This document shows positions 3,262 to 62,692 of a DNA stretch of 64,000 nucleotides, piece by piece; within the stretch, counting starts at the first letter, position 1, and each line of letters begins with the position of its first letter. The notes below the pieces were generated by a model. The model made no database searches and was not told where the DNA came from. It was given only the letters and a program-made list of their open reading frames with translations. The stretch covers positions 96,001-160,000 of the forward strand of contig JBPOGI010000007.1 of assembly GCA_051251855.1 (NCBI GenBank). Reading direction: 5' to 3'. The translations under genes and the position numbers were made by a program. Source of the stretch: Roseibacillus sp. (GTDB lineage Bacteria > Verrucomicrobiota > Verrucomicrobiia > Verrucomicrobiales > Akkermansiaceae).

Positions 3262-4480
3262 GCCCCTGCCCTCCCTCACTCTCCCCACCGCCAGAGAGCA
3301 CAAGCCTCTCAGCACCGACTCCTTTCTCGGAAAGAAGACCCTCGTTCACATCTTTGCTTCCTGGTGAGCAGGCTGCCGTAAGCACGTGCCCGGGTGGCAC
3401 AACCAAACGAAAGACCTCGTAACAGAAGGCAAATTGCAAGTATTCGGCATCGCACCCGAACAATACGGCGATCGTATGGCTCTCTTTCTTCAATGGAAGA
3501 ACCTCGAATTCCCCGTCCTGATGGATCCCTTAAATGTGCTCAATGTCTCTGCCGTCCCCATCACTCTTCTCGTCGATGAGTCCGGAGTGATTCGCTACCG
3601 CAATCCCAAGCCTAGAGATCTAAAAGTCTTTTTAGACAAAGAATACCCCGAAACCGCAAGAGTCATCACTCCCGCTTCTCCTCTCGGACAAGAGCAGGCG
3701 CTGCGGGCGCTTCAAAATCGAGACACAGCCGAAATCGAGAGAGCTGCTACCATGTTGGCCTTACTCTCGACTTCGAATAAAAATCCTGAATTCACTTTTC
3801 AATCCGGCGTTCTTGCTCGCTGGCTCTTTGACAACGGAGGCGATCCCGAGAATTTTCAAACTGCGGTCCACCTCTGGAGCGACGCCCTTGCTCATCGCCC
3901 CGGTCAATACATCTGGCGCCGAAGAATCCAGCAATACGGTCCTCGCCTTGATAAGCCCTACCCATTCTACAACTGGGTCATCGAAGCTCGCAAAGACCTG
4001 CAAGCCGCTGGAAAAACGCCTCACCCGCTCCAAGTCGAACCATCAGGCTCGGAAGTGGCAGCCCCGCGCAAGAAAGGCGAACAAGGAAAAGAGTCCCCCA
4101 ACTTCCCCGACCCTAACAACAAGCTCCCCCACGAAAACGCCCTCCTCGAAATCACAACCACTACCATCCCGCATACCGACGCCCCCGAGAAGGGACGCCT
4201 CCACCTCCTGCTCACTCCTACCGAGAACGGGCATTGGTCCAGCGATGCTCAAAAGGTCGAGCTCTGGTTTCGTCCCGAAGAAGGCTCCCCCATCTTTCTC
4301 ACCAGCGAGGCCACTTCCCTCCCGGCTAATCTCGAGACCAGCAGCCTCCCCCGAGTCCTCGAAGGAGATTTCTCTCTTCCACAAAACTCCGCTGGGAAGC
4401 TGGTTCTCTTCTACTCCCTTTGCGAAACCGAGAATGCTGTTTGCCGCTTTCTCAAAACGGAATGGAAATTTCATCAGTAA
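3185..4480 (+). CDS. Secreted TlpA/thioredoxin-fold redoxin, candidate selenoprotein (in-frame TGA at 3365-3367 giving WUAGC)
   Basis: ORFs 3059..3367 and 3386..4480 share a frame. Reading through gives LGKKTLVHIFASW-*-AGCRKHVPGW...FPVLMD...VSAVPITLLVDESGVIRY, a continuous TlpA fold with the TGA at the first Cys of CxxC. N-terminal signal peptide; start could be 3176. Confidence 0.8.
3365..3400 (+). promoter_or_regulatory. Candidate bacterial SECIS element
   Basis: TGA followed by the stem GTGCC (3386-3390) / loop CGGGT / GGCAC (3396-3400). 23 nt separate the TGA from the apical loop, which has G at loop position 2. Confidence 0.55.
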
Positions 4481-58325: not shown

Positions 58326-59600
58326 ATGGCCAGCTTTCACATTCATACCGGAGCTCAGCTCTCCCGCCGTCACTTCTTGCGCAACGTCGGCATCGTCATG
58401 GGCCTCCCCTTGCTTGACGCAATGACGCCCGCCTTCGCTGCCGCACCAACCCGCGCACCCAAACGATTTGTCGGCATCAGCCTCTCCTTAGGCCTCCACT
58501 CCCCCAACCTCGTTCCCAAAGACGCCGGCCGCGATTACACCCCCTCCCGTTATCTGCGCTCGGTCCAAGACCTACGCGATCAATTCACCGTCATCTCCGG
58601 CACCTCCCACCCCGGAGTCGGCGGAGGACACCGGGCCGAATCCTCCATCTTCACCGCTTGCCCAAACAAAGGCAGCGGCAGCCGCAATACCATCTCCTTG
58701 GACCAATTGATGGCGAAACACCTCGGACACGAGACCCGCTTCCCCTCCCTCACCCTCAATACCGGCGAACAAAAGAGCCCCTCCTACACCGAGAACGGCT
58801 CCATGATCCCCGCCATCGACGACCCCCGCCAACTCTTTGCGCAACTCTTCATCGACGACAAACCAGCAGTCCGCCGACGTCAGACCGAACTCCTGCGAGG
58901 AGGAAAAAGCATTATGGATATCGTCGGAGCTGAGGCCAAAGCGCTCCAACGCGAAGTCGGAGCTGGGGACCGCGATAAACTCGACTCCTGGTTCACCAGC
59001 GTGCGAGAGCTGGAACAACGCCTCGAAATGAACAAAGCTTGGGTCGAAAAGCCCAAACCCAAAGTCAAAGGCCAACCCCGCACCCCAGACAACAACAACG
59101 CTGCCGACATCAAACGTGCTATGCTCGACACCATTGCCATGGCTCTCCAAACCGACTCCACCCGCTTCATCACCCTCCATTGCACCACCAACGGCGTGCG
59201 TAGCATCGAGGGTGTCGACGAAAGCTACCACGGCCTCAGTCACCACGGTCTCGACGAGGAAAAGCTGACCCAACTCACCTTGGTCGAACAAGCCATGATC
59301 AACTCTTGGGGTAACTTCCTTCGTCAACTTAAAGACAGCGAGTCTAATGGACGCACCCTGTTAGACGACACCATGGTCATCCTCACCTCCAACCTCGGCA
59401 ACGCTTCCTCTCATGACAACCGCAACATGCCTGTCCTCTTCGCGGGAGGAGAATTTGTCCACGGCCAGCACCTCGCCTTCGACCAAAAGGACAATTACCC
59501 CCTCCCCAATCTCTACCTCAGCGCCCTCAATTCGATTGGCATCATGCAGGACAATTTCGCCACCAGCACCGGCGCCATGAAAGGCCTACAGATGACTTAG
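58326..59600 (+). CDS. DUF1552 domain protein with Tat signal
   Basis: SRRHFLR, LPLLDAM, ISLDQ, TRFPSL, SVRELE.RL, YHGLSHHG, LLDDT, H...N.P.LFAGG. Confidence 0.88.
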   Translation: MASFHIHTGAQLSRRHFLRNVGIVMGLPLLDAMTPAFAAAPTRAPKRFVGISLSLGLHSPNLVPKDAGRDYTPSRYLRSVQDLRDQFTVISGTSHPGVGGGHRAESSIFTACPNKGSGSRNTISLDQLMAKHLGHETRFPSLTLNTGEQKSPSYTENGSMIPAIDDPRQLFAQLFIDDKPAVRRRQTELLRGGKSIMDIVGAEAKALQREVGAGDRDKLDSWFTSVRELEQRLEMNKAWVEKPKPKVKGQPRTPDNNNAADIKRAMLDTIAMALQTDSTRFITLHCTTNGVRSIEGVDESYHGLSHHGLDEEKLTQLTLVEQAMINSWGNFLRQLKDSESNGRTLLDDTMVILTSNLGNASSHDNRNMPVLFAGGEFVHGQHLAFDQKDNYPLPNLYLSALNSIGIMQDNFATSTGAMKGLQMT

Positions 59601-59610
59601 CTCCCCGATA

Positions 59611-59630
59611 GGAGGGTCGACTTTCGTCGA
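59611..59630 (+). repeat. GGAG-type REP-like hairpin
   Basis: GGAG-GG-TCGAC-TTTC-GTCGA. Confidence 0.4.
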
Positions 59631-59686
59631 ATGACAACGCCCCAAACTCTTTCCTACAACTTGCTTTCACCACCAAGCCGGAGAAC

Positions 59687-59716
59687 AAAAAAGACCGACT
59701 GTTTCCAGTCGGCCTT
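59687..59716 (-). terminator. Rho-independent terminator
   Basis: Minus strand GGCCGACTG-GAAA-CAGTCGGTC-TTTTTT, about 25 nt after the stop at 59741. Confidence 0.85.
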
Positions 59717-59740
59717 CTCAAAAAATAACAAGTCGAAGGT

Positions 59741-60439
59741 TCAACCCTTTTTTAAGATTTCAGGGAGCTTCTTGTCGCTATAGTGCGTCTTCACGACCTT
59801 TTCATCGACAACAATTTCAACCTTCGCTCCAATCAGCTCATCTGCACGGCGACCGCCGGGCGTTACTGGACCGCCTCCTCATCCGCCACCCGATTTGGAT
59901 GTCGAAACCCGTTCCAAACTCACCGTGCTACTGAAGCCTTCGGAGCGTTTCTTTGGATAAATGGTGTAGAGGTCAAGGGAACCCGTTTTCTCGGTAATCT
60001 TCCCCTTGCCCGAATTCGTACCCTTGCGATAATAAATCGTATAATTCGCGGTGACATCTTCCATTACCTCACCCGAACCGTTCAGCACATTAATCGTGTA
60101 TCCCGTAGGAGTGACTGCGCTTCGCATCGTGTCCGAACGAGTGGACTGTCGCTCGCCCTCAAACTCTTTCAGTTGAACCGTGGTCGCGCTTGCCGCAGCA
60201 AGAACCACTCCGTTTTCGCGAATATACGTTTGGTCTTCCTCACAAAGGAGAGAGACCTTAAACTTCACCTCTGAACCATTGTCACGCAGGACCGTAACGG
60301 TATCAGACTTGGAACTATAGCCAATCGCCTCACCGACGAACGACTTGGACTTATCCGCGCTATGGAAGGTCCGCTCCTCAAGGGCAGACGCCGGTAGCAC
60401 CGCCAAAAGGCAGAGGGGTATGAGACGTTTCATTTTCAT
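59741..60439 (-). CDS. Secreted SHD1-like domain protein, candidate selenoprotein (in-frame TGA at 59879-59881, GGG-U-GGG)
   Basis: The 186-aa ORF ends SKSGGG-TGA, but the frame stays open for 45 more sense codons (GGGPVTPGGRRADELIGAKVEIVVDEKVVKTHYSDKKLPEILKKG) up to a terminator. SD AGGAGG, signal peptide, RTF.S.D...G......LL...DQ.YI motif. Confidence 0.65.
59847..59881 (-). promoter_or_regulatory. Candidate bacterial SECIS element
   Basis: After the TGA: stem CGGC / loop GGTC / GCCG, with 24 nt between the TGA and the apical loop. Confidence 0.45.
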
Positions 60440-60572
60440 ATTCCCTCCTACATTAGGACCAAAATCCTAGAAAACGAGGCAAAAATCGCCTCCACCTCCC
60501 TGTCTGCGACAGCATTTCCAACGCATCGTGGGCTTGCCCAAAGCGAAAAAAAGCCTTATCGCACGCGCAACA

Positions 60573-61172
60573 ATGTCTTTACCCGCTATTTCCCAAGTCG
60601 CCGGCACCGCCGTTCCTGTTCTCGGTAACGATATCGACACCGACCGTATCATCCCTGCCCGCTTCATGAAGTGCGTCACTTTCGACGACCTCGCCGAAGG
60701 CATGTTCTACGACGTGAAAAACAATCCCGAGACCGGCGAGAAAACCGACCACCCCCTCAACGACAGCAAATTCGAGGGAGCTTCTATCCTTCTTTCAAAC
60801 TCCAACTTCGGCTGCGGTTCCTCTCGCGAGCACGCCCCTCAGTCCATCTACCGCTCCGGCTACCGCGCTGTCATCGCCGAGTCCTTTGCCGAAATTTTCT
60901 TCGGAAACTCCACTACCTTGGGAATGCCCTGCGTTTGCGCCAGCCACGCAGACATCACCGCCCTTTCGGACTTTGTCACCAAAGCTCCCGAAACACGTAT
61001 CACCATCGATATCGACACCCTCAAGGTCCACTACGCTGACATTTCATTCCCCATCACCCTTCCCAATTCCGCTCGCAGCGCCCTCACCACCGCGAAGTAC
61101 GACCCCTTGGCTGAACTTCTCGAGAACAACGAAGCCATCGAAAAGACCGCCGACGGCCTCGCTTACGTTTAG
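60573..61172 (+). CDS. leuD: 3-isopropylmalate dehydratase small subunit
   Basis: NDIDTDRIIPARF, NFGCGSSREHAP, AVIAESFAEIFFGN. Confidence 0.95.
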   Translation: MSLPAISQVAGTAVPVLGNDIDTDRIIPARFMKCVTFDDLAEGMFYDVKNNPETGEKTDHPLNDSKFEGASILLSNSNFGCGSSREHAPQSIYRSGYRAVIAESFAEIFFGNSTTLGMPCVCASHADITALSDFVTKAPETRITIDIDTLKVHYADISFPITLPNSARSALTTAKYDPLAELLENNEAIEKTADGLAYV

Positions 61173-61187
61173 TCCGACTTCGATCCG

Positions 61188-62579
61188 CTATTTCTTCTGC
61201 AAGCGCCCGCCCGTTCTTCGGCCCGGGCCTATTTTCTTTTGGAAATCATCGCCCAAGTCAGCCCGCATCTCCTCGGCCAGCCTCTGCATGCTCGCCAAGA
61301 TCGCCGGATGCTGATCAATCACGTTTTCGGTCTCCCCGATATCCTCATCCACGTTGTAGAGTTCCAAATCCGACTTGGGCCACAAGTAGGTCCCTCGCAT
61401 GCCATCCTGCCCCGGCTCACTGCGTTCATCGCGCCATTTGTGGGGAAAAATCAGCTTCCATGGCCCCATTCGCATCGCTTCCAAATTGTTGCGGCCATAA
61501 TAGAAAAAGTAAGCCTCCTGCACTGGCCCCTCCACCGCTCCCGAGAGCATGGGCCAAGCATCCTCTCCATCAATCGCGTGCTCTGGCAAAGGAACCTCGA
61601 GTAACCCCGCGATGGTTGGCAACAAGTCTATCGTCATCCAAAGCTCATTCCTCACTAAACCTGCCTCAAATTGAGCTGGCCAACGCATCACACAAGGCAC
61701 CCTCACCCCGCCTTCCCAACTCGTACCCTTGCTTCCCCGTAAAGGCCCCACCAAGCCGCCATGATTCCCATAGGTCATCCACGGCCCGTTATCACTCGTG
61801 AAAATCACCCAAGTATTCTCCGACAACTTGAGCTCATCCAACGTCTTCAAAATTTCCCCCGTGGACCAATCAATTTCTTGCATCACATCTCCATACAAAC
61901 CGTTGGACGAACTCCCCGCCCGTTCCGGCGACACATAAAGTGGCACGTGCGGCTGGGGATGAGCTAAATAGAGAAAGAAGGGACGCTCCTGGTTCTCCCG
62001 AATGAATCGCACCGAACGCTCCGTCAGCCACTTCGTCATATAGGTCTGGTCCTCCACCGTCACAATCACCTCATCGTCTTCAATCAAAGGAAGACGAGGC
62101 CATTTGGGTTTCATTTCAACCGGTCCACTCGGCCACATGTCATTGGAATAGGGATAACCAAAGTAATCATCGAAACCATGATGTACCGGCAAGAACTGCG
62201 GATAATGCCCCAGGTGCCACTTCCCAAAAGCCGCCGTCGCATAACCCGCCTGCTGGCACACCTCCCCCAGAGTTACTTCGTCTTCATGAATGCCATTCTT
62301 GCTCCCAGGCCCCAGCGCCCCCGCGATATCGATTCGGTTAGCATAACACCCCGTCAAAAGCGCCGCCCGCGAAGCAGAACAAACCGCTTGCGCCACATGA
62401 AAATCGGTAAACCGAATCCCCTCCTCCGCCAGCCGATCAATATTTGGCGTCGCCCACCCCTCCGCCCCCTGACAACTCAAGTCCCCATAGCCTAAATCAT
62501 CACAATAGATGAGCACGATATTTGGCCTCTCAGCGAGGATCGGAAGAACCAGAGCAAACAAGAGAATCAAAACTTTCAT
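61188..62579 (-). CDS. Secreted arylsulfatase-like (S1) sulfatase
   Basis: PNIVLIYCDDLGYGD, CSASRAALLTG, GKWHLG, FTSDNGP, EGGVRVP, ELYN..EDIGE. Confidence 0.93.
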   Translation of the reverse strand: MKVLILLFALVLPILAERPNIVLIYCDDLGYGDLSCQGAEGWATPNIDRLAEEGIRFTDFHVAQAVCSASRAALLTGCYANRIDIAGALGPGSKNGIHEDEVTLGEVCQQAGYATAAFGKWHLGHYPQFLPVHHGFDDYFGYPYSNDMWPSGPVEMKPKWPRLPLIEDDEVIVTVEDQTYMTKWLTERSVRFIRENQERPFFLYLAHPQPHVPLYVSPERAGSSSNGLYGDVMQEIDWSTGEILKTLDELKLSENTWVIFTSDNGPWMTYGNHGGLVGPLRGSKGTSWEGGVRVPCVMRWPAQFEAGLVRNELWMTIDLLPTIAGLLEVPLPEHAIDGEDAWPMLSGAVEGPVQEAYFFYYGRNNLEAMRMGPWKLIFPHKWRDERSEPGQDGMRGTYLWPKSDLELYNVDEDIGETENVIDQHPAILASMQRLAEEMRADLGDDFQKKIGPGRRTGGRLQKK

Positions 62580-62692
62580 GACAACTTGTAACCCAGACTC
62601 AGCAAGTAAAGGAAGCACTCAGAGCCCATTGAACCAGAGCCATTCATGCAATTCGCGTCCTAGGTCATACAACTGAAGCAGAAGTTCCTATT

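Follow-up and report, generated by a model that had tools for sequence, protein, structure and literature searches.

The analysed stretch ("the window") comprises 64,000 nucleotides (nt) of Roseibacillus sp. DNA (contig JBPOGI010000007.1, positions 96,001 to 160,000); the sequencing runs that hold this DNA are seawater and macroalgae metagenomes, and none of the runs listed is an RNA data set. A gene on its minus strand (60439..59741) has an in-frame TGA at codon 187 (59881-59879), in the context TCG GGT GGC GGA TGA GGA GGC GGT CCA. Under translation table 11, the open reading frame (ORF) 59879..60439 encodes 186 amino acids (aa) and ends at this TGA; no ORF of 40 aa or more was found downstream of it in the same frame. 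When the TGA was read as selenocysteine (Sec, U), the frame had 232 sense positions with U187 and ended at a second TGA (59743-59741). The 45 sense codons between the two TGAs include DELIGAKVEIVVDEKVV. A first-pass annotation of the sequence had described this TGA and the 45 codons behind it, and had proposed a new selenoprotein family. The arrangement was correctly described, and the comparisons below indicate that the in-frame TGA very probably encodes selenocysteine and that the protein is a selenoprotein. The features of the gene are as follows.

60444..60449, minus strand: Shine-Dalgarno-like AGGAGG, read in the sequence, upstream of two ATG codons, at 60439 (4 nt away) and 60433 (10 nt away)
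60383..60439, minus strand: predicted signal peptide, codons 1-19 (MKMKRLIPLCLLAVLPASA, then LEERTF), from sequence features; predicted local distance difference test score (pLDDT) 57-58 for residues 1-20
60203..60382, minus strand: SHD1-like small beta domain and first helix, residues about 20-79, from a structural match to 2hbp
59774..60190, minus strand: predicted immunoglobulin (Ig)-like beta-sandwich, residues about 84-222, interrupted by the Sec loop (181-195), from the AlphaFold2 model
59879..59881, minus strand: UGA codon 187, read as selenocysteine in GGGUGGG, from the sequence and family comparison
59844..59861, minus strand: hairpin resembling a selenocysteine insertion sequence (SECIS), RNAfold dG -7.8 kcal/mol, inside codons P-G-G-R-R
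59744..59878, minus strand: putative coding extension, codons 188-232, with strands 196-199, 201-211 and 214-220 and helix 225-231, from the model and the ratio of nonsynonymous to synonymous divergence (dN/dS)
59741..59743, minus strand: true stop TGA; the sister genome has TAG here, and an independent metagenome strain TAA
59683..59710, minus strand: intrinsic-terminator-like hairpin (59710-59693) and T-run past the second stop, from a terminator scan

The database copy of the protein has 184 aa, i.e., it was called from the second ATG; the start is thus either 60439 or 60433. Homologues likewise have an AXA-type end of the signal peptide, followed by a conserved E-x-R-x-F opening of the mature part. 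Apart from the Sec position, the only Cys in the mature part is C66, which is Ser in the sister genome.

All ten close database homologues (63-100% identity) were called at 184-186 aa, and therefore end at the codon-187 TGA. Whole-genome six-frame searches that read through stops were performed on 61 relatives and on 401 genomes of the order Verrucomicrobiales; the query ended in an additional C that represented the terminal TGA, a harmless artefact. Full-length matches with an in-frame TGA were found in nine of the relatives' genomes besides the source's own. In the search of the order, one or two in-frame TGAs were present in 56 of the best 150 rows, from 52 genomes; there were 980 further matches, and many of the 322 matching genomes matched the N-domain only. 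The TGA-bearing relatives span several taxonomic families of the order. All TGAs lie in one glycine-rich loop, just ahead of a conserved R-x-D-x-h-x-G strand. The first-pass annotation had asked whether TGA or Cys is conserved at this position; TGA was found at the same loop position in several taxonomic families, and Cys in other members. The outcome it had named as refuting, i.e., Gly in the relatives with a TGA unique to this strain, was not seen. A chance open frame or a sequencing error at the TGA was also considered and was rejected because the TGA is present in an independent run and in 52 genomes.

We collected 77 distinct full-length ORFs, dropped one that contained X, and removed rows with >90% identity, which left 66. 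Of these, 49 have Sec, 9 have Cys in the loop, and 8 have neither. The GGGUGGG loop is that of the present gene and the sister genome. Other Sec loops read GGGUGGxPC (U-x4-C), GCUG or ACUG, UC, UU, C-x4-U (e.g., QCVGGTU), C-x2-U, or, with two Sec, U-x5..9-U. Stop-free members have CC, CxxC (CPKC, CSTC, CSSC) or CxC in the same loop, or lack Cys there; Cys homologues in the Sec loop thus exist in an alignment that treated U as C. Most members pair Sec with Cys or a second Sec at short range. The earlier statement that there is no CxxC or UxxC motif was accordingly true of the present protein and not of its family. When the loop columns were left out of the tree, the pair formed by the present gene and its sister-genome counterpart had a congeneric CC form as its sister (Shimodaira-Hasegawa-like approximate likelihood-ratio test, 99), and well-supported branches forced at least four changes of the Sec label.

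Two sets of loci showed unusual arrangements. At L072:292-924 (minus strand), two adjacent TGAs are present (GGGUUGSG), with a single SECIS hairpin 21 and 24 nt downstream of them, and a genus-mate has TGA TGT (UC). The UU may reflect a genuine Sec-Sec pair, or else an error of one base in a metagenome-assembled genome (MAG). Tandem paralogues occur in some genomes without the selenocysteine synthesis gene product SelA (L020 and L027/L056, two copies each); in one genome a CxxC form lies beside a form without Cys, and in another both copies lack Cys.

A profile was searched against 1.84 billion cluster representatives and gave 186 matches at E≤1e-30, 1786 at 1e-10, and 7231 at 0.001; the weaker matches probably share only the N-domain. 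Among the best 150 representatives, 64 stop at or near the Sec column, 85 are full length, and 1 is unclear. The 64 have C-termini reading ...SGGG, ...QCVGGT or ...GGPG, with a small number of contig-end fragments among them. Cys is present in the loop window of 30 of the 85 full-length representatives. A single-protein search of genome contigs found no relative; the same contigs searched with a sub-alignment (A4) gave 14 loci, all with titles of Verrucomicrobiales, Verrucomicrobia or Akkermansiaceae MAGs.

The 45 codons after the TGA were compared with those of the sister genome. The proportions of nonsynonymous and synonymous differences were 0.091 (pN) and 0.580 (pS), and dN/dS was 0.087. 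Extension dN/dS could be computed in 10 of 12 pairs; nine values were 0.05-0.25 and one was 0.685. A 363-nt contig from an independent strain (run X5, from another study) covers 59669-60031. In this contig the internal TGA is kept and the terminal TGA is replaced by TAA (window position 59742); the seven other differences within the ORF are all synonymous, and three of them lie within the extension. In the sister genome the terminal stop is TAG. Judged from these alignments, the real stops drift while the internal TGA stays, and the post-TGA extension is under purifying selection, as the first-pass annotation had suggested testing. Homologues ending at the TGA with no conservation downstream, its second refuting outcome, were not seen.

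These results bear on the alternative that the codon-187 TGA is an ordinary stop, the 186-residue product is the real protein, and the 45 codons are untranslated or a decaying remnant. Gene callers do end the protein there, the SECIS-like hairpin of the present gene is short, and a 45-codon open stretch alone is not improbable. We nevertheless consider this alternative highly improbable. A stop would not explain the low dN/dS of the extension or the synonymous-only differences in the independent strain, nor the retention of TGA across several taxonomic families while terminal stops vary among TGA, TAG and TAA. Cys occurs at the aligned position in other members, TGA forms are almost confined to SelA genomes (see below), and truncation would remove three strands of the predicted sandwich.

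The source genome (4.96 Mb, 95% complete) contains the machinery for selenocysteine. SelA is present, the SelB winged-helix domain is found in a 754-codon frame, and tRNA-Sec scored 63.9 bits and was called tRNA-SeC with anticodon TCA by ARAGORN. The SelD gene (contig 7, 93121-94050) has one in-frame TGA (SSCAGUASKL); the selenophosphate synthetase of this genome thus appears to be a selenoprotein itself. Across the order, 133 of the 401 genomes have SelA; among the 52 TGA-form genomes (best 150 rows), the number is 51. One of the 51 is a weak partial match, and the sole TGA-form genome without a SelA match is 67% complete. Within the source genome's taxonomic family, SelA was found in 9/9 TGA-form genomes and in 0/9 named genomes whose listed full-length copies are stop-free; one SelA-bearing genome in this family carries a CC form. 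These are given as counts and not as a test because the relatives are not independent.

Two other genes of the source genome also have hairpins downstream of a TGA. In the SelD gene, a hairpin with a GGUCU loop lies about 35 nt downstream. At window position 3365 (plus strand), an in-frame TGA lies in a long frame, with 105 codons before it and 370 after it; the sequence around it, HIFASWUAGCRKH, contains a thioredoxin-like UxxC motif, and a hairpin loop CGGGU begins 26 nt downstream. From its sequence this gene looks like a Prx/TlpA-like selenoprotein, and its TGA is probably the earlier one implied by the first-pass annotation, which called the TGA at codon 187 the second in-frame UGA. GGU in a hairpin loop after the TGA is thus found in both the SelD gene and the UxxC gene of the same genome.

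Read-through of the UGA by something other than Sec-tRNA was also considered, i.e., decoding by a suppressor tRNA or a near-cognate one (Trp, Cys or Gly), or a reassignment of the code. UGA-to-Trp reassignment is described for some Verrucomicrobiota in the accessible text of one study (PMC13462651), and this precedent within the phylum is the point in its favour. The present gene itself, however, ends with TGA followed by a terminator, so that TGA is a stop in this genome. The 4.96-Mb genome has the full Sec machinery, and both the GU-loop hairpin at a set distance and the link with SelA are specific to Sec. We therefore regard non-Sec read-through as very improbable.

The CGGC/GGTC/GCCG hairpin reported by the first-pass annotation is present and is the local form of a SECIS-like hairpin, with invariant GU in the loop, that occurs throughout the family. 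In the present gene, CGGC (59858-59855) pairs with GCCG (59850-59847) around a GGUC loop (59854-59851); beyond these 4 bp there is a C.U mismatch and then two more pairs, out to 59861/59844. The loop begins 27 nt after the U of UGA, which places GU at positions 29-30. RNAfold predicted a hairpin with a GGUC, AGUU or GUU loop after nearly every Sec codon of the family. To count these, we scored a hairpin when its stem had 5 or more uninterrupted pairs and its loop, 3-6 nt long with GU in it, began 18-30 nt downstream of UGA. Such a hairpin was found in 57 of 58 distinct last-or-only UGA contexts and, at the corresponding position of the alignment, in 1 of 17 homologues that lack Sec; the background was 6.7% of all window positions and 8.1% of the 2258 window TGA trinucleotides. 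When 4 pairs were accepted, all 58 contexts passed, including the present gene, against a background of 13.6-16.2%. Among 28 tetraloop hairpins, the loop G and U were invariant and all 7 stem pairs varied on both sides. Their covariation score was 0.928, versus 0.222 for shuffles (reached in 0 of 500) and 0.08-0.22 for slid partners.

The arrangement resembles recoding in E. coli fdhF. According to the available text of PMC8659212, the fdhF element has an upper stem-loop of 17 nt, beginning 11 nt downstream of UGA; G23 and U24 on its apical loop are fixed together with U17 while other positions vary, and U17 and G23 are named as SelB-binding sites. In both systems an in-frame UGA is followed at a set distance by a stem-loop within the coding region, and the apical-loop G and U are invariant; where the loop of a family member begins at offset 21, its GU occupies positions 23-24, the same as in that description of fdhF. 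Unlike fdhF, the family has stems that are perfect helices of 5-10 bp with NGUY tetraloops (GGUC or AGUU) or GUU/GGUUC loops, a bulged U like fdhF U17 was not seen in these stems, and the spacing moves in steps of three, the loop start being mostly 21, 24, 27 or 28. A scan of 59600-60000 against Rfam (E≤10) gave three chance-level matches and no SECIS family.

Forms with two Sec codons (L081, L083, L084, L099, L100, L098, L065, L021) showed a different pattern. The upstream UGA was followed by a hairpin of the above definition in 1 of 9 cases, and the second UGA had the standard hairpin. Another hairpin follows the first UGA, and the second UGA often lies in its loop (Y-UGA-AAR).

Several points weigh against the selenocysteine interpretation. 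The SECIS criterion was set after the hairpins had been inspected, and the sole context that fails it is the present gene, whose SECIS is the weakest of the 58. The 28 hairpins used for covariation were selected for at least 4 pairs, and their 88% pairing therefore arises partly by construction. The ORF sample was enriched for TGA forms, 37 of the 40 fetched stretches having been chosen for TGA. The aligner received U as C, and this favours placement of Sec over Cys; the loop also varies in length, so that exact column identity is uncertain for CU versus UC forms. The open stretch of 45 codons is not significant alone (about 0.1 under even codon use, an estimate). The terminator does lie past the extended stop and not after the TGA, as the first-pass annotation had noted, and none was found between the two TGAs; the scan itself is at chance level, with 2 sites versus 1.5 ± 1.6 expected from shuffles. 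The case for Sec is made because the comparison with relatives carries the signal, and not the terminator scan or the open-frame length alone. The machinery, the conserved TGA, the Cys forms, the SECIS, the selection on the extension, the SelA link and the fold prediction are the grounds for the selenoprotein reading, and an exported Sec protein of a new Verrucomicrobiales family is, with good confidence, the best explanation of the locus as a whole.

AlphaFold2 on the 66-row alignment gave a model with pLDDT 90.7 and a predicted template modelling score (pTM) of 0.80. The model is all-beta except for helices 67-85 and 225-231, and its parts are as follows.

residues 1-20: disordered; signal peptide by sequence, ending ASA before LEERTF
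residues 23-85: small beta domain and two helices
residues 86-220: beta-sandwich
residues 181-195: Sec loop, with the lowest pLDDT of the folded part (71)
residues 196-199, 201-211 and 214-220: strands after Sec, pLDDT 82-98
residues 225-231: helix after Sec

The model is consistent with the earlier proposal of an exposed selenol on a flexible glycine loop, that loop being the least confident segment of the folded part. It also bears on whether the extension completes the beta-sandwich: in the full-length model the extension supplies three strands and a helix at pLDDT 82-98, and a product ending at residue 186 would lack this part of the predicted sandwich.

The first-pass annotation had described the N-domain as SHD1-like. 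This was upheld by structure and was weak by sequence. In VIA-align, residues 20-79 of the model superposed on Sla1 homology domain 1 (2hbp) with Z 8.3 and a root-mean-square deviation (rmsd) of 2.0 over 58 of 66 residues (17% identity). The Pfam hidden Markov model (HMM) for SHD1 (PF03983), unlike the fold, did not match the present protein at E≤1; it matched 3 of the 66 members weakly (best E 0.0019). Yeast SHD1 binds an endocytic peptide motif, a ligand without obvious counterpart in bacteria. In the ESM Atlas, SHD1 is present in 15-28% of the members of clusters related to the family, and clusters that resemble the N-terminal part combine SHD1 with thioredoxin, PQQ/BamB, YHYH, SASA esterase or peptidase domains. 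By these annotations, the SHD1-like module seems to occur commonly at the head of exported enzymes in Verrucomicrobiota and Planctomycetota, which suggests a shared docking role.

For residues 84-222, VIA-align returned the Ig-like domain 5t9a of a glycoside hydrolase family 2 (GH2) protein (Z 9.7), CsgC 2y2y (Z 8.2), transglutaminase and others, with scores in the range that the tool calls common for unrelated sandwiches. Foldseek against PDB gave weak whole-model matches only (arrestins, POLDIP2/PDIP38, ApaG; template modelling score 0.4 by target), which we read as generic likeness among beta-sandwich models. Thioredoxin was found neither by Pfam, in the present protein or the 66 members, nor among the structural matches listed. 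CsgC and the DsbD N-domain carry a CxC or C-x5-C redox pair on an Ig sandwich. Like CsgC, the modelled C-domain is an exported Ig-like sandwich, and oxidised E. coli CsgC (2y2y) superposed with rmsd 3.7 over 95 residues; sequence identity, however, was 3%, and the score is within the generic sandwich range. The DsbD N-domain was absent among the best 50 structural matches. Unlike in CsgC and the DsbD N-domain, the putative redox residues of the family, Sec included, are on a long Gly-rich loop.

We examined whether the family has been described. DUF1573 is a non-thioredoxin domain of exported proteins. Table 1 of a 2026 review, as far as its text was available, includes a DUF1573 domain selenoprotein (PF07610) with the motif UGC (PMC13188914), and the present family resembles it as a predicted selenoprotein with a Sec-Gly-Cys type motif. 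PF07610, however, matched 0 of 66 members (E≤0.01), which makes this a different family, and the present family has the SHD1-like N-domain and a far wider motif set. The same review tabulates 119 prokaryotic selenoprotein families and subfamilies with model ids. In its available text, none of the 119 is an SHD1 or Ig-like exported protein; the comparison was by Pfam and NCBIfam models, and not by families keyed to CDD or PANTHER (PMC13188914). The present protein might thus be a divergent member of a described selenoprotein family that HMM libraries fail to detect, since some review families lie outside that comparison. We consider this improbable. No Pfam or NCBIfam family matched the present protein at E≤1, and across the 66 members Pfam gave only six marginal families, with no selenoprotein family among them. 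An all-beta fold is predicted, Ig-like and SHD1-like, whereas most characterised selenoproteins are thioredoxin-like according to the review text available (PMC13188914). The available text of the deep-Sep paper (PMC12013277) does not name the family, and contains Verrucomicrob, SHD1 and signal peptide 0 times each. Full-text literature searches, with survey supplements outside their scope, yielded no description of a selenoprotein like this from Verrucomicrobia or Verrucomicrobiota, and nothing for SHD1 together with selenocysteine. ESM Atlas clusters around a Cys-form homologue were all 'hypothetical protein', with Verrucomicrobiota the commonest phylum. The claims that the protein fits no known selenoprotein family and that the family is new thus hold against these models, and the second also draws on the machinery, the conserved TGA, the SECIS and the selection. 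In our assessment of the sequences, this is in all likelihood a new selenoprotein family within a known kind of system.

We propose the following mechanism, in which the recoding step is well supported and follows the standard bacterial route. The exported protein would have about 213 residues after removal of the signal peptide. SelB carrying Sec-tRNA(Sec) would bind the coding-region SECIS hairpin (59861-59844), and the ribosome would insert Sec at UGA 187 and read 45 codons on to the real stop (59743-59741). In the architecture a signal peptide would be followed by an SHD1-like docking domain and then by an Ig-like sandwich with a long glycine-rich loop between its last strands. This loop carries U, CU, UC, UU, C-x4-U, U-x4-C, C-x2-U or U-xn-U in Sec forms, and CC, CxxC, CxC or no chalcogen in genomes without Sec machinery. 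It may be a redox-active selenol/thiol centre outside the cytoplasm, where most members could form a reversible selenenylsulfide or diselenide; the present protein, with its lone selenol, would have to pair with an external thiol or with another copy of itself. The SHD1-like domain may hold the protein on a partner or envelope component.

Mammalian thioredoxin reductase has a C-terminal Gly-Cys-Sec-Gly redox arm. Like this arm, some members of the family have G-C-U-G on a flexible glycine-rich segment (AGCUGQP, AGCUGVP), an analogy that suggests a vicinal selenenylsulfide swinging to a partner in the GCUG members. The protein, fold and compartment are unrelated to those of thioredoxin reductase, and the present protein has GGGUGGG without Cys.

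A redox function, with an extracytoplasmic centre on a mobile loop, is our tentative preference, held at slightly less than even confidence. The main rival to it is that the protein is a selenoprotein whose loop binds a soft metal or metalloid (Hg, Cu, Cd, As, Se) and captures or hands over the ion outside the cytoplasm. Thiophilic metal sites have CC, CU, UC, UU, CxxC and C-x4-U on a flexible loop just as typically as redox sites do. The predicted fold is non-thioredoxin and Ig-like, and periplasmic metal chaperones also use an Ig-like fold. Selenoproteins with CU or UxxU that are annotated as metal-binding include MbdU, an HgcA-type protein and a putative mercuric reductase, according to the accessible review text (PMC13188914). 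On the other hand, the present protein offers a single ligand, its lone U; there is no conserved His/Met-rich motif near the loop; and no metal-resistance genes recur beside the gene (37 loci, 68 flanking ORFs). We rate metal or metalloid binding as unlikely, though it is the least unlikely of the alternatives.

The redox proposal also meets difficulties of its own. The present protein has a lone Sec with no partner Cys near. Among the 85 full-length representatives of the best 150, 55 have neither Cys nor Sec in the loop, often with G-(W/Y)-Y there; the many chalcogen-free members indicate that the chalcogen is dispensable for the basic role of the family, which weakens a purely catalytic redox reading. 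No conserved partner was found among the same 68 flanking ORFs, so that context gives no functional support. The lone Sec, the large Cys-less branch and the unconserved neighbourhoods fit neither redox function nor metal binding well.

The neighbouring genes in the window are a DUF1552/HXXSHH protein with a twin-arginine-like N-terminus (SRRHFLRNVG; 58326-59600, plus strand), a LeuD-like small subunit whose sister-genome counterpart is Aconitase_C (60528-61172, plus strand), and a sulfatase (61188-62618, minus strand). None of these three is kept beside homologues elsewhere. Across the 37 loci, sulfatases, PSCyt/PSD proteins and cytochrome c recur as neighbours among close relatives only.

At its broadest, the protein might be the founding example of an extracytoplasmic class of non-thioredoxin selenoenzymes. 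Such a class would combine an Ig-like sandwich, a swinging Gly-rich arm whose chalcogen is repeatedly retuned (a lone U, CU/UC like the GCUG arm of thioredoxin reductase, adjacent UU, C-x4-U, two-Sec forms, and CxxC or aromatic residues in the absence of Sec), and SHD1-like docking, and would serve as a selenium-dependent electron shuttle or selenol scavenger in the periplasm or at the surface of marine polysaccharide degraders. We put this forward as a speculation, with less confidence than the redox function itself. Known selenoproteins are mostly intracellular enzymes with a thioredoxin fold or a metal cofactor, and here the predicted fold is Ig-like and the protein exported. The natural series of Sec and Cys motifs lends itself to the question of what selenium offers beyond sulfur in a compartment that is oxidising. 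The 58 SECIS variants show what the SelB of this order recognises, and could improve selenoprotein prediction in the phylum. Genome pipelines cut these genes at the Sec codon, as in 10/10 close database copies and 64 of the best 150 representatives. A sizeable marine Verrucomicrobiales family is consequently misannotated, and the selenium demand of these bacteria is underestimated.

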